The notes beneath the pieces were generated by a model. The model saw only the letters and a program-made list of their open reading frames with translations, did no database searches and had not been told where the DNA came from. The position numbers were made by a program, and so were the translations under genes. From Escherichia coli (GTDB taxonomy: Bacteria; Pseudomonadota; Gammaproteobacteria; Enterobacterales; Enterobacteriaceae): DNA of 64,000 bases. The DNA lies in the NCBI RefSeq assembly GCF_013122565.1, contig NZ_CP053258.1. The stretch is one strand, 5' to 3'. Shown here piece after piece: positions 1,677 through 53,513 of this stretch. Within the stretch, counting starts at the first letter, position 1. Every line of letters starts with the position of its first letter.

Positions 1677-3215
1677 ATGGCTTTTGCCTCATTAATTGAA
1701 CGCCAGCGCATTCGCCTGCTGCTGGCGTTATTATTCGGTGCCTGCGGAACGCTGGCCTTCTCTCCTTACGATGTCTGGCCTGCGGCGATTATTTCGCTGA
1801 TGGGGCTTCAGGCGTTGACCTTTAACCGTCGTCCACTCCAGTCTGCCGCTATTGGCTTTTGCTGGGGATTTGGCCTCTTTGGCAGCGGTATTAACTGGGT
1901 CTATGTCAGCATCGCGACCTTTGGCGGAATGCCTGGCCCGGTTAACATCTTCCTGGTGGTGCTGCTGGCGGCGTATTTGTCGCTGTATACCGGACTGTTT
2001 GCTGGCGTGCTGTCGCGCCTGTGGCCGAAAACCACCTGGCTGCGCGTGGCGATTGCCGCCCCTGCTCTCTGGCAAGTGACCGAGTTTCTGCGCGGTTGGG
2101 TACTGACCGGCTTCCCGTGGTTACAGTTCGGCTATAGCCAGATTGATGGCCCGTTAAAAGGGCTGGCACCGATAATGGGCGTGGAAGCCATTAACTTCCT
2201 GCTGATGATGGTTAGTGGCCTGCTGGCACTGGCGTTGGTCAAACGCAACTGGCGTCCGCTGGTGGTGGCCGTCGTGCTGTTTGCCCTACCCTTCCCGCTG
2301 CGTTACATCCAATGGTTTACCCCGCAACCGGAGAAAACCATTCAGGTTTCGATGGTTCAGGGCGATATTCCGCAATCGCTGAAATGGGACGAAGGCCAGC
2401 TTCTTAATACGCTGAAGATTTACTACAACGCAACGGCACCGCTGATGGGCAAATCATCGTTGATTATCTGGCCGGAGTCGGCGATAACCGATCTGGAAAT
2501 TAATCAGCAACCGTTCCTCAAAGCACTGGACGGTGAGTTGCGCGAGAAAGGGAGCTCGCTGGTAACCGGGATTGTTGACGCGCGTCTCAATAAGCAGAAC
2601 CGCTACGATACCTACAACACCATCATCACGCTGGGTAAAGGTGCACCGTACAGCTACGAATCAGCCGATCGCTATAACAAAAACCATCTGGTGCCGTTTG
2701 GCGAGTTTGTCCCGCTCGAGTCGATTCTGCGTCCGTTAGCACCGTTCTTTGATCTGCCGATGTCGTCGTTCAGCCGTGGGCCATATATCCAGCCGCCGCT
2801 GTCGGCAAATGGTATTGAGCTTACTGCGGCTATTTGCTATGAGATCATTCTTGGCGAGCAAGTGCGTGATAACTTCCGCCCGGATACCGACTACCTGCTG
2901 ACTATCTCCAATGATGCATGGTTTGGTAAGTCTATTGGTCCATGGCAGCACTTCCAGATGGCGCGTATGCGTGCGTTGGAGCTGGCGCGCCCATTGCTGC
3001 GTAGTACCAACAACGGCATTACGGCGGTGATTGGCCCGCAGGGTGAGATTCAGGCGATGATCCCGCAGTTCACCCGCGAGGTGCTAACCACTAATGTGAC
3101 ACCGACCACCGGACTCACACCGTATGCACGTACCGGCAACTGGCCGCTGTGGGTGCTGACGGTGCTATTTGGTTTTGCCGCTGTGTTGATGAGTCTGCGT
3201 CAACGACGTAAATAA
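1677..3215 (+). CDS. lnt: Apolipoprotein N-acyltransferase, 512 aa
   Basis: ORF 1677..3215; N-terminal TM segments; C-terminal CN-hydrolase domain with E (WPESA), K ([10 protein letters not shown]), C (AAICYEI) triad. Confidence 0.95.
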
Positions 3216-25044: not shown

Positions 25045-26157
25045 ATGACGGATAATCCGAATAAAAAAACATTCTGGGATAAAGTCCATCTCGATCCCAC
25101 AATGCTGCTGATCTTACTGGCATTGCTGGTTTACAGCGCCCTGGTTATCTGGAGCGCCAGCGGTCAGGATATTGGCATGATGGAGCGTAAAATCGGCCAA
25201 ATCGCGATGGGTCTGGTCATCATGGTGGTGATGGCGCAAATTCCTCCACGCGTTTATGAAGGCTGGGCCCCCTATCTCTATATCATCTGTATTATTTTGC
25301 TGGTGGCGGTAGATGCTTTCGGTGCCATCTCTAAAGGCGCTCAACGCTGGCTGGACCTCGGTATTGTTCGTTTTCAGCCGTCGGAAATTGCCAAAATAGC
25401 CGTACCACTGATGGTTGCGCGCTTTATCAACCGCGACGTTTGCCCGCCATCGTTGAAGAACACTGGCATCGCGCTGGTGCTGATATTTATGCCCACGCTG
25501 CTGGTGGCTGCACAGCCTGACCTGGGAACATCAATCCTCGTTGCGCTTTCCGGTCTGTTTGTACTGTTCCTCTCTGGCCTTAGCTGGCGTCTGATTGGCG
25601 TCGCAGTAGTGCTGGTAGCGGCGTTCATTCCGATTCTGTGGTTCTTCCTGATGCATGATTACCAGCGCCAGCGCGTAATGATGCTCCTGGACCCGGAATC
25701 AGACCCACTCGGCGCGGGCTATCACATTATTCAGTCTAAAATTGCTATTGGCTCCGGCGGATTACGCGGCAAAGGCTGGCTGCATGGCACTCAGTCACAG
25801 CTTGAATTTCTACCCGAACGCCATACCGACTTTATCTTCGCGGTACTGGCGGAAGAGCTGGGATTAGTGGGCATTTTGATTCTGCTCGCTCTCTACATTC
25901 TGCTGATCATGCGCGGGCTGTGGATAGCCGCCAGAGCGCAAACCACCTTTGGTCGCGTCATGGCTGGCGGCTTAATGCTGATATTATTCGTTTATGTCTT
26001 CGTAAATATTGGTATGGTAAGCGGTATTCTGCCGGTTGTAGGGGTTCCGCTCCCACTGGTCAGTTATGGAGGATCGGCGCTAATTGTGCTGATGGCTGGG
26101 TTCGGGATTGTAATGTCAATCCACACCCACAGGAAAATGTTGTCGAAAAGCGTGTAA
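25045..26157 (+). CDS. mrdB: SEDS-family peptidoglycan glycosyltransferase RodA, 370 aa
   Basis: Polytopic membrane protein immediately after mrdA. Confidence 0.95.
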
Positions 26158-26167
26158 GAGGTGCGCA

Positions 26168-27256
26168 ATGCGTAAGCAGTGGCTCGGGATCTGCATCGCG
26201 GCAGGAATGCTCGCGGCATGTACAAGCGATGATGGTCAGCAACAGACGGTAAGTGTACCGCAGCCTGCGGTATGTAACGGCCCCATAGTTGAAATTAGCG
26301 GGGCGGACCCGCGTTTCGAACCACTGAACGCGACGGCAAATCAGGATTACCAGCGCGACGGTAAAAGCTACAAAATCGTGCAGGATCCGTCTCGATTTAG
26401 CCAGGCGGGACTGGCGGCAATCTATGATGCCGAACCCGGCAGTAACCTGACGGCCTCTGGCGAAGCTTTCGATCCGACACAGCTGACGGCGGCCCATCCA
26501 ACGCTTCCGATCCCCAGCTACGCCAGAATCACTAACCTGGCTAACGGGCGAATGATCGTGGTGCGCATTAATGATCGCGGTCCTTACGGCAACGACCGCG
26601 TTATTTCGCTTTCTCGCGCAGCAGCTGACCGTCTTAACACATCAAACAACACCAAAGTTCGTATCGATCCGATTATTGTCGCCCAGGATGGTTCGCTTTC
26701 TGGTCCTGGTATGGCTTGTACCACAGTCGCCAAACAGACTTACGCCCTGCCTGCACCTCCCGATTTAAGCGGCGGCGCAGGAACAAGTTCAGTGTCTGGC
26801 CCGCAGGGTGACATTCTTCCGGTCAGTAATTCGACGCTAAAAAGCGAAGATCCGACCGGCGCGCCGGTAACCAGCAGCGGTTTCCTCGGCGCACCAACGA
26901 CCTTAGCGCCTGGTGTTCTGGAAGGCAGCGAACCACCGCCTGCTCCACAGCCCGTTGTTACAGCTCCGTCGACAACGCCTGCAACCTCGCCTGCAATGGT
27001 GACACCGCAAGCCGCCTCGCAAAGCGCCAGCGGCAACTTTATGGTGCAAGTCGGGGCCGTTAGCGATCAGGCTCGTGCGCAACAGTACCAACAGCAACTG
27101 GGACAGAAGTTCGGCGTCCCCGGTCGCGTAACTCAAAATGGCGCGGTCTGGCGGATCCAGCTTGGCCCATTCGCCAGCAAAGCCGAAGCCAGTACCTTGC
27201 AGCAACGTTTGCAAACCGAAGCCCAATTACAGTCATTTATTACCACCGCGCAGTAG
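26168..27256 (+). CDS. rlpA: Septal lytic transglycosylase-like lipoprotein RlpA, 362 aa
   Basis: Lipobox MLAACTS; Pro/Ala/Thr-rich linker; C-terminal SPOR-like domain. Confidence 0.9.
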   Translation: MRKQWLGICIAAGMLAACTSDDGQQQTVSVPQPAVCNGPIVEISGADPRFEPLNATANQDYQRDGKSYKIVQDPSRFSQAGLAAIYDAEPGSNLTASGEAFDPTQLTAAHPTLPIPSYARITNLANGRMIVVRINDRGPYGNDRVISLSRAAADRLNTSNNTKVRIDPIIVAQDGSLSGPGMACTTVAKQTYALPAPPDLSGGAGTSSVSGPQGDILPVSNSTLKSEDPTGAPVTSSGFLGAPTTLAPGVLEGSEPPPAPQPVVTAPSTTPATSPAMVTPQAASQSASGNFMVQVGAVSDQARAQQYQQQLGQKFGVPGRVTQNGAVWRIQLGPFASKAEASTLQQRLQTEAQLQSFITTAQ

Positions 27257-27395
27257 CGTAAAGCAGGCATCTGATGTGTCAATTTCTGTAAATGACGTTA
27301 ACAAAGTCACGCGGAAAGTCAGATGCCTGCCGGTAGTGCATTTGCTATAGTAGGGCACTTTTTTTAATTCCATCACGGATGTCGTAGTTCAGACC

Positions 27396-28607
27396 ATGAA
27401 TACCATTTTTTCCGCTCGTATCATGAAGCGCCTGGCGCTCACCACGGCTCTTTGCACAGCCTTTATCTCTGCTGCACATGCCGATGACCTGAATATCAAA
27501 ACTATGATCCCGGGTGTACCGCAGATCGACGCGGAGTCCTACATCCTGATTGACTATAACTCCGGCAAAGTGCTCGCCGAACAGAACGCAGATGTCCGCC
27601 GCGATCCTGCCAGCCTGACCAAAATGATGACCAGTTACGTTATCGGCCAGGCAATGAAAGCAGGTAAATTTAAAGAAACTGATTTAGTCACTATCGGCAA
27701 CGACGCATGGGCCACCGGTAACCCGGTGTTTAAAGGTTCTTCGCTGATGTTCCTCAAACCGGGCATGCAGGTTCCGGTTTCTCAGCTGATCCGCGGTATT
27801 AACCTGCAATCGGGTAACGATGCTTGTGTCGCCATGGCCGATTTTGCCGCTGGTAGCCAGGACGCTTTTGTTGGCTTGATGAACAGCTACGTTAACGCCC
27901 TGGGCCTGAAAAACACCCACTTCCAGACGGTACATGGTCTGGATGCTGATGGTCAGTACAGCTCCGCGCGCGATATGGCGCTGATCGGCCAGGCGTTGAT
28001 CCGTGACGTACCGAATGAATACTCGATCTATAAAGAAAAAGAATTTACGTTTAACGGTATTCGCCAGCTGAACCGTAACGGCCTGTTATGGGATAACAGC
28101 CTGAATGTCGACGGCATCAAAACCGGACACACTGACAAAGCAGGTTACAACCTTGTTGCTTCTGCGACTGAAGGCCAGATGCGCTTGATTTCTGCGGTGA
28201 TGGGCGGACGTACTTTTAAAGGCCGTGAAGCCGAAAGTAAAAAACTGTTAACCTGGGGCTTCCGTTTCTTCGAAACCGTTAACCCACTGAAAGTAGGTAA
28301 AGAGTTCGCCTCTGAACCGGTTTGGTTTGGTGATTCTGATCGCGCTTCGTTAGGGGTTGATAAAGACGTGTACCTGACCATTCCGCGTGGCCGCATGAAA
28401 GATCTGAAAGCCAGCTATGTGCTGAACAGCAGTGAATTGCATGCGCCGCTGCAAAAGAATCAGGTCGTCGGTACTATCAACTTCCAGCTTGATGGCAAAA
28501 CGATCGAACAACGCCCGCTGGTTGTACTGCAAGAAATCCCGGAAGGTAACTTCTTCGGCAAAATCATTGATTACATTAAATTAATGTTCCATCACTGGTT
28601 TGGTTAA
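27396..28607 (+). CDS. dacA: D-alanyl-D-alanine carboxypeptidase PBP5, 403 aa
   Basis: SLTK, SGN and KTG motifs; signal peptide. Confidence 0.97.
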
Positions 28608-28716
28608 AAATTGAACACTTGAAAGTGTAATTTCCGTCCCCATATACTAAGCATCAGTAAAAAACTCCCGCCTTCTGGCGGGAGTTGCTATTTAATTACG
28701 TTACGCCGGAGCTGAC

Positions 28717-32109: not shown

Positions 32110-32140
32110 TCCTGTAATAATTACTTACATCTGTCTGATA

Positions 32141-32170
32141 AAAAACCCGCTTTTTGAAGCGGGTTTTTTG
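32141..32170. terminator. Bidirectional intrinsic terminator between convergent lipA and tatE
   Basis: AACCCGC-TTTTTGAA-GCGGGTT hairpin flanked by A-run and T-run. Confidence 0.7.
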
Positions 32171-52718: not shown

Positions 52719-53465
52719 ATGCTAAAAAAGTCACTTTTAATGACAATGCTACCTGCCATTGCCTTCGCAGAGGAACTTCCTGCTCCAGTAAAAGCGATTG
52801 AAAAACAGGGCATTACAATCATCAAAACGTTCGATGCCCCCGGAGGAATGAAAGGTTATCTCGGAAAGTATCAGGATATGGGCGTCACCATCTACCTGAC
52901 TCCAGATGGTAAGCACGCTATCTCTGGTTACATGTACAACGAGAAAGGTGAAAACCTGAGTAACACACTTATCGAAAAAGAAATTTACGCACCAGCCGGA
53001 CGCGAAATGTGGCAACGGATGGAACAATCCCACTGGCTCCTCGACGGTAAAAAAGACGCGCCGGTCATTGTCTACGTCTTCGCCGATCCGTTCTGCCCAT
53101 ATTGTAAACAGTTCTGGCAGCAGGCGCGCCCGTGGGTAGATTCTGGCAAAGTGCAGTTGAGAACATTGTTGGTTGGGGTTATCAAACCAGAAAGTCCGGC
53201 GACAGCCGCGGCAATTCTTGCCTCCAAAGATCCCGCAAAAACCTGGCAAGAATATGAAGCCTCTGGTGGCAAGCTTAAGCTAAACGTGCCTGCAAACGTA
53301 AGTACAGAGCAAATGAAAGTGTTAAGCGATAACGAGCAACTCATGGACGATCTGGGGGCAAATGTCACACCCGCTATCTATTACATGAGTAAGGAAAATA
53401 CGTTGCAACAAGCCGTGGGGTTGCCCGATCAGAAAACGCTTAATATCATTATGGGAAATAAATAA
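52719..53465 (+). CDS. dsbG: Periplasmic disulfide isomerase DsbG, 248 aa
   Basis: Signal peptide; CPYC thioredoxin-fold active site. Confidence 0.95.
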
Positions 53466-53477
53466 AAGATAATTCAT

Positions 53478-53513
53478 GGATGGTTGAAATATACCCCTGC
53501 TTTTCAACCATCC
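53478..53513 (+). terminator. Stem-loop 12 nt after dsbG stop
   Basis: GGATGGTTGAAA / TTTCAACCATCC perfect 12-bp stem, 12-nt loop; weak T-tract. Confidence 0.45.

Follow-up and report, generated by a model that had tools for sequence, protein, structure and literature searches.

Where does the transcript of one cell-wall operon end, and where does that of the next gene begin, when the two genes read in the same direction and are separated by a short spacer? The question is raised by the mrdA-mrdB-rlpA-dacA region of Escherichia coli, which we examined in a 64-kb stretch of genomic DNA (hereafter, the window; all coordinates refer to it). The rlpA gene (26168..27256, + strand; 362 amino acids; stop codon TAG at 27254-27256) is separated by a 139-nt spacer from dacA, which encodes PBP5 (27396..28607, + strand). 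Both genes were assigned from the list of open reading frames and RefSeq annotation, which for rlpA is that of identical E. coli sequence. rlpA is the final gene of the mrdA-mrdB-rlpA transcription unit. It also has a mapped transcription start site (TSS; 88 reads) 142 nt 5' of its start codon (Kim et al., 2012; PMC3415461). This site falls at about position 26026, inside mrdB, so that a promoter within mrdB contributes to rlpA transcription as well. A sequence-only reading of the spacer had noticed a perfect 12-bp inverted repeat followed by a GC clamp and a run of seven Ts, and had proposed a terminator or attenuator, a processing site or a protein-binding site. The evidence presented below leads us to conclude that the repeat forms a conserved sense-strand RNA stem-loop, which probably sets and protects the 3' end of the rlpA (mrd operon) transcripts.

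An inverted repeat in the rlpA-dacA spacer is predicted to fold into a stable RNA hairpin

We confirmed the 12-bp repeat. Its 5' arm, GCAGGCATCTGA (27263..27274, + strand), starts 6 nt past the rlpA stop codon and is the exact reverse complement of the 3' arm, TCAGATGCCTGC (27319..27330, + strand), so that the two arms are 100% complementary and lie 44 nt apart. Counting only perfect inverted repeats with arms of at least 12 bp and loops of 3-100 nt, we found three in the 64-kb window versus 0.41 +/- 0.71 in 100 dinucleotide shuffles. With three present against 0.41 expected per shuffled window, a single repeat is suggestive but not decisive alone. The other two repeats, both with short loops, lie at 32140-32169 and 53478-53513. 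The former (AAAAAACCCGCTT/AAGCGGGTTTTTT) forms a hairpin with a symmetric A run and T run and agrees in sequence with the cspE terminator; the latter (GGATGGTTGAAA/TTTCAACCATCC) is located 13 nt past the end of an open reading frame at 53465 and carries no T run.

As RNA of the + strand, the 68 nt from arm to arm fold into one long hairpin with an energy of -31.4 kcal/mol (z = -7.7), and the folding calculation that had been suggested as a check on the repeat thus returned a strong stem-loop. RNA of the - strand folds more weakly (-23.5 kcal/mol, z = -4.0). The hairpin survives in a 201-nt folding context that includes 120 nt of rlpA coding sequence. In the predicted fold, the basal helix has 13 pairs, including a U.G closing pair (27275/27318). 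The 44-nt interior or 'loop' (27275..27318, + strand, delimited by fold and alignment) contains an inner 7-bp helix (27283-27289 with 27311-27317) and an apical 4-bp helix (27293-27296 with 27306-27309). A scan of Rfam (E <= 10) returned only noise over the element, the best overlapping match being MIR477 with 16.4 bits versus a threshold of 65 (E = 7.6). A simple promoter and terminator scan made no call in the rlpA-dacA spacer either, because the -35 hexamer of the promoter described below is poor and the loop of the stem is large. Outside this spacer, positions 28663-28686 between dacA and ybeD gave sub-threshold partial Rfam matches to the rnk leader (19.6 bits) and the cspA thermoregulator (12.5 bits), which are probably just a hairpin.

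The dacA promoter overlaps the repeat and the T run lies in the dacA mRNA

The published TSS of dacA (NC_000913.2 663224(-), 336 reads) gives a 5' untranslated region (UTR) of 38 nt in K-12 (Kim et al., 2012; PMC3415461). It corresponds to A27357 on the + strand of the window, the A of GGGCA/C, where the upstream sequence ends in ...TGCTATAGTAGGGCA, and the 5' UTR here is 39 nt long. Near-invariance and the correct distance from the mapped TSS identify TGCTATAGT (27343..27351, + strand) as the extended -10 element of this promoter; its majority frequency is 0.99 in 49 Enterobacteriaceae and it is kept in most other Enterobacterales loci. The hexamer at the -35 position, as deduced from the mapped TSS and the invariant spacing, is ATGCCT (27323..27328, + strand), which matches TTGACA at 3 of 6 positions and is separated from TATAGT by a 17-nt spacer. 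Among the loci that have both, the distance between GATGCC of the 3' arm and TATAGT is near-constant, at 19 nt (20 nt in three Rahnella loci). So placed, the hexamer lies within the 3' arm of the stem, and this arm has a second role as the dacA -35 region.

This start site also settles what the T run is. The motif GGGCAC followed by T7 occupies 27353-27365, and the run itself (27359..27365, + strand) begins 29 nt past the 3' arm. The run is polymorphic, with T7 in this genome and the majority of E. coli, T6 in K-12 MG1655 and DH5alpha, and T4 to T8 in other genera. The sequence-only reading took the GC clamp and T7 as a terminator tail. Because the dacA TSS is A27357, the run is instead +3 to +9 of the dacA mRNA, and the published Term-seq catalogue lists no curated 3' end at it in three growth conditions (Adams et al., 2021). 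Attenuation of dacA falls for a related reason: the hairpin is upstream of the TSS, which lies 27 nt downstream of the stem, and thus is outside the dacA leader and cannot be a dacA attenuator or riboswitch. We also considered, and rejected, attenuation by pairing of TGCC in the 3' arm with the downstream GGCA, because in most species the two hairpins occupy separate stretches of sequence and can form side by side.

The dacA leader has features of its own. The entire 5' UTR, ACTTTTTTTAATTCCATCACGGATGTCGTAGTTCAGACC (27357-27395), is near-invariant across Enterobacteriaceae, and CACGGATGT within it is retained even in Serratia, Yersinia, Erwinia and Edwardsiella. Such conservation is well above what is usual for a 5' UTR and comes without a well-spaced Shine-Dalgarno sequence. 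This suggests an unrecognised post-transcriptional element or the target of a small RNA (sRNA).

Transcripts from the rlpA side end a few nucleotides past the stem

Mapping of 3' ends was another proposed check on the repeat, and the published Term-seq data for MG1655 contain a strong end 10-11 nt past the stem, at 664018(-) with a score of 91306 and, in a second condition, at 664017(-) with a score of 41794; both are classed as 'orphan' / 'upstream ORF -54 dacA' (Adams et al., 2021; PMC7815308). We checked how the table counts coordinates against the cspE terminator and the MG1655 sequence, and on this basis placed these ends at 27340..27341 on the + strand (...GCCUGCCGGUAGUGCA(U)-3'), positions -17/-16 relative to the dacA TSS. 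The scores are of the same order as that of the cspE terminator peak in the same table, although identical values turn up repeatedly there, which shows that the scores do not rise linearly with reads, and abundance should not be over-read from them. There are no other curated 3' ends within about 40 nt. Because the dacA TSS (27357) is downstream of it, the end belongs to the upstream, rlpA-side transcripts. The stem is followed by CGGUAGUGCAU, which has only 3 Us in its first 11 nt and no U-tract. On the opposite strand, a weak antisense 3' end (GCCUGCUUUACG-3') maps to 27257 (- strand; MG1655 664101(+)), 6 nt beyond the hairpin, and is listed three times in the three-condition table, with scores of 1166 and 1788 among them (Adams et al., 2021). 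Low-level antisense transcripts are thus also ended by the hairpin.

How the primary end arises is a separate matter from its position. A stem that forms in the RNA exit channel could act directly, with RNA polymerase pausing 10-11 nt downstream and releasing the transcript there in spite of the missing uridines. The distance from stem to end is that of the classical hairpin-pause geometry, and the antisense 3' end 6 nt past the hairpin, followed by UUUAC, would be in keeping with such an activity. However, the last 9 nt of the sense transcript, GGUAGUGCA, are not U-rich and hence do not form a weak RNA:DNA hybrid. The sequence also lacks the U-tract by which intrinsic terminators are defined, and the terminator scan found no match. 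We regard direct release at this site as highly unlikely. The available data show no sign of Rho. The table of Rho regions has no entry for rlpA or dacA, no LB 0.4 Rho score is given for this exact site (Adams et al., 2021; PMC7815308), and the C/G ratio is 1.0-1.3 downstream of the stem and 1.0 over the 54 untranslated nt, the latter arguing against any rut-like bias. A roadblock by promoter-bound RNA polymerase was rejected as well, as we would expect collision ends some 60-70 nt upstream of the TSS rather than at -17.

Cleavage provides another route. An RNase E cut of mrd-rlpA-dacA read-through RNA in the single-stranded segment GCA/U/UUGC would directly yield 27340/27341, and would be a possible first step of the protective stem-loop model rather than a competitor to it. 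In favor of such a cut, the sequence around the end is single-stranded and A/U-rich and adjoins a stable stem, and the data show no Rho signal, either in the Rho-region table or in the C/G ratio. RNase E reportedly prefers RN/WUU (Chao et al., 2017), which the Us at +1 to +3 fit in part, but the match to the motif is only partial. As the source of the end, we consider this cut possible yet rather doubtful.

A third route involves a second, weak hairpin, AGUGCAUUUGCUAUAGUAGGGCACU (27335..27359, + strand), which encloses the -10 element and extends up to the T run. Read-through RNA from rlpA could undergo intrinsic termination at this hairpin and the T7 run (27335-27365) and then be trimmed back to the large stem, a sequence of events that is also compatible with the protective stem-loop and would specify its first step. 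In favor of it, only 0-2 nt separate the second hairpin from a perfect T7, and the folding energy of this hairpin is -7.7 kcal/mol in E. coli (z = -2.9) and -11 to -13 kcal/mol in Enterobacter, Kosakonia and Leclercia versus -4 +/- 2 kcal/mol for shuffles. Yet the hairpin of the Cedecea/Buttiauxella group folds no better than shuffles despite an invariant T run, and the simple terminator scan does not call the second hairpin. Furthermore, the catalogue has no 3' end at the T run in any of the three growth conditions, and the T run and GGCAC are already accounted for as the start of the dacA mRNA. Termination followed by trimming is, on balance, an improbable though coherent origin for the end. 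In Enterobacter, Kosakonia and Leclercia (loci L004, L015, L017, L020, L021, L023, L027, L028 and L031, about 2938-2968), the second hairpin reads TGCCT-G-TATAGC-TTTT-GCTATA-GTA-AGGCA and stops 1 nt short of the T7 run. The dacA promoter of this group has a terminator-like structure laid over it; in E. coli and Cedecea, this structure is either much weaker or missing.

The stem is conserved as RNA across Enterobacteriaceae

Of 5426 complete E. coli genomes, 5424 carry the element, where it overlaps no annotated feature and is single-copy (median of one place per genome by both megablast and blastn). To follow it further, 80 Enterobacterales loci were gathered via DacA and their rlpA-dacA spacers aligned; covariation was analysed in the alignment of 49 Enterobacteriaceae species, in which the stem occupies the same place. 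The stem cells are paired in 82.5% of cases versus 32-44% with slid partners, compensatory double changes occur in 7 of the 12 stem pairs, and none of 500 shuffles reached the covariation score. The pair 27272/27321, for example, is UA in 23 species, CG in 20, UG in 3 and AU in 1, and at 27270/27323, 42 species have UA and 4 have CG. The inner helix is 78% paired, with a G-C/C-G exchange at one pair, whereas the apical helix is merely 49% paired. RNAalifold independently recovered 6 core base pairs. A covariance model built from 44 sequences detected held-out Enterobacteriaceae (E from 1e-8 to 1e-12) and gave marginal matches in Erwiniaceae at the same position; in the 64-kb window, it matched one site only, with 87.6 bits on the + strand and 27.4 bits on the - strand. 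Conservation in relatives had been named as a check on the repeat, and the covarying stem found across Enterobacteriaceae shows that the repeat is not a chance occurrence.

The pattern of substitutions also identifies the strand and the molecule under selection. Among non-Watson-Crick cells at the 9 core pairs, G.U outnumbers A.C by 35 to 7. Allowing G.U on the + strand lengthens the helices greatly in many species (e.g., from 4 to 16-17 bp), an effect that A.C pairs rarely have. This excess of G.U, together with the G.U-lengthened + strand helices, argues for selection on the sense-strand RNA rather than on a DNA palindrome or an antisense RNA. A DNA-level element, such as a palindromic operator or a cruciform for a regulator of the dacA promoter, would fit the overlap between the 3' arm and the -35 position, and BolA has been reported as a regulator of dacA. 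Palindromic operators have fixed spacing and two conserved half-sites. Here, in contrast, the distance between the arms ranges from 30 to 61 nt across species and only one arm is conserved in sequence: in the 49 Enterobacteriaceae, the 5' arm has a majority frequency of 0.69 and an entropy of 1.07 bits, compared to 0.87 and 0.47 bits for the 3' arm. The less conserved 5' arm varies so that pairing stays, and its G.U-tolerant drift is conservation of an RNA type. The protein-binding site of the sequence-only reading is therefore weakly supported at best, and we hold an operator or cruciform to be exceedingly improbable.

The loop is fairly well conserved too (majority frequency, 0.79), and part of this conservation may operate at the DNA level, as sequence upstream of a promoter. 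Conserved interior motifs (TGTCA..TGTAA..TTAACAAAGTCA, 27278-27310) lie at about -80 to -48 of the dacA TSS and exceed what pairing needs. They could be a transcription factor or UP-type site for the dacA promoter; a by-eye comparison of the loop with CRP, CpxR, LexA and PhoP-type sites gave poor matches.

The same conserved loop, along with the strong Term-seq peak, might instead point to a hairpin-ended fragment that functions as a stable RNA without a U-tail, possibly a ProQ-bound 3'-UTR-derived sRNA or a sponge linking the elongasome genes with PBP5 or other targets. But the element matches no Rfam family, our literature search found no paper joining rlpA, ProQ and 3' UTR, and the conservation of the loop is explained equally well by its place in the upstream part of a strong promoter, from about -82 to -40. 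There is little likelihood, in our estimation, of such a role.

Outside the Enterobacteriaceae, Rahnella, Hafnia, Yersinia, Edwardsiella, Serratia and some Erwinia are without this hairpin and have another compact GC-rich hairpin directly after rlpA. We considered those of Rahnella and Hafnia as canonical terminators and rejected the assignment, as they fall short of the T-run requirement of the simple terminator scan. In Serratia plymuthica (locus L053, ~2760-3000), which does not have the Enterobacteriaceae hairpin, ATGCCTGCCGG is kept at the -35 position and pairs in the minimum free energy fold with CCGGCGGGC ~90 nt upstream, which hints that the present stem may have been preceded by an older pairing with the -35 region. 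The spacer of one Enterobacterales MAG (locus L058, 2653-3000) is 348 nt long and has an apparent insertion of ~200 nt between a GGATGCC/TTTGTTATA segment and a second copy of ...GAGTATAGTAAGGCAC, as if into the -10 region.

A proposed protective 3' stem-loop that shares its DNA with the next promoter

Stable stem-loops that lack a U-tract have been described at the precise steady-state 3' ends of E. coli mRNAs, which they protect from PNPase and RNase II, as a class tied to Rho-dependent termination (Dar and Sorek, 2018; PMC6061677). The rlpA element reproduces this pattern, with a stable stem, no U-tract and a precise end downstream, and it is on this ground that we read the repeat as a protective stem-loop. 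It resembles the members of this class in its location at an operon end, in the Term-seq 3' end a few nucleotides downstream and in the reduced uridine content after the stem (3 in 11 nt). It differs from them in that no Rho dependence is apparent in the available data, in its unusually long-range stem with a 44-nt interior containing sub-helices, in the 10-11 nt tail and in the use of the 3' arm as the -35 region of the next promoter.

Other known systems share fewer of these traits. Like an intrinsic terminator, the element has a stable stem (-31.4 kcal/mol) that immediately follows a stop codon and precedes an RNA 3' end, and it occupies the site of compact GC-rich hairpins in related bacteria. 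Unlike one, it has a large loop and no U-rich tract of ~7-8 nt right after the stem, and its end is 10-11 nt away in non-U sequence rather than ~7-9 nt away within a U-tract. REP/BIME elements are likewise intergenic palindromes that end upstream transcripts and stabilise them as 3' hairpins, as the rlpA element probably does. They are, however, dispersed repeats, while the rlpA hairpin has no REP consensus and owes its conserved position across Enterobacteriaceae to descent. An origin from a REP-like repeat family was rejected, as the element is single-copy in the 5424 E. coli genomes and the covariance model has one match in the window. Intercistronic hairpins processed by RNase E or RNase III are similar in lying between co-directional genes, with a 3' end in an adjacent single-stranded A/U-rich segment. 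They differ in that dacA has its own strong promoter, and most dacA mRNA should consequently not derive from processing.

In the model that we favor, the inverted repeat would be transcribed as the 3' untranslated end of rlpA and fold into a stem-loop without a U-tract, composed of a 12-13 bp basal helix, a 7-bp inner helix and a small apical helix. RNA past the stem would be removed by 3'->5' exonucleases, cut in the single-stranded GCA/UUUGC, or both. The stable stem would then halt further decay and leave the 10-11 nt tail that ends at 27340/27341, stabilising the mRNA. The primary 3' end could be generated by cleavage of read-through RNA, weak termination or trimming. A tail of this length is somewhat long for an end 'immediately downstream' of a stem, and it fits the distance at which RNase II stalls. 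The same DNA would serve dacA, with the 3' arm at the -35 position and the 3' end of the upstream RNA within the spacer of the extended -10 promoter. The double constraint on the 3' arm, as stem and as promoter, would leave it to the 5' arm to evolve so as to remain complementary. From the original proposal of a terminator or attenuator between mrd-rlpA and dacA, what survives is the separation of the two transcripts by a stem-loop, marked by the Term-seq end; the T7 tail and the attenuator do not.

Although the 3' end was in the published catalogue, it had not been characterised; the element is a well-supported, newly assigned case of a known kind of mRNA 3'-end structure, which adds no new mechanism. 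It explains an 'orphan' Term-seq end of a published catalogue as the end of rlpA-side transcripts rather than an event in the dacA leader. A more ambitious reading would have the hairpin and its 10-nt tail be an abundant, independently functional 3'-UTR-derived RNA without a U-tail (e.g., bound by ProQ), or have the overlap between the 3' arm and the -35 region couple transcription of mrdA-mrdB-rlpA to firing of the PBP5 promoter. We think this quite a long shot; if it holds, the element would do more than end a transcript, namely coordinate the enzymes that build and trim the cell wall. The favored model fixes the transcript map of a well-studied cell-wall locus, with PBP2, RodA and RlpA on one side and PBP5 on the other. 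It also provides a covariation-supported example of dual-use sequence in which one arm of a hairpin serves as the -35 region of the next promoter and the other arm alone is free to evolve.
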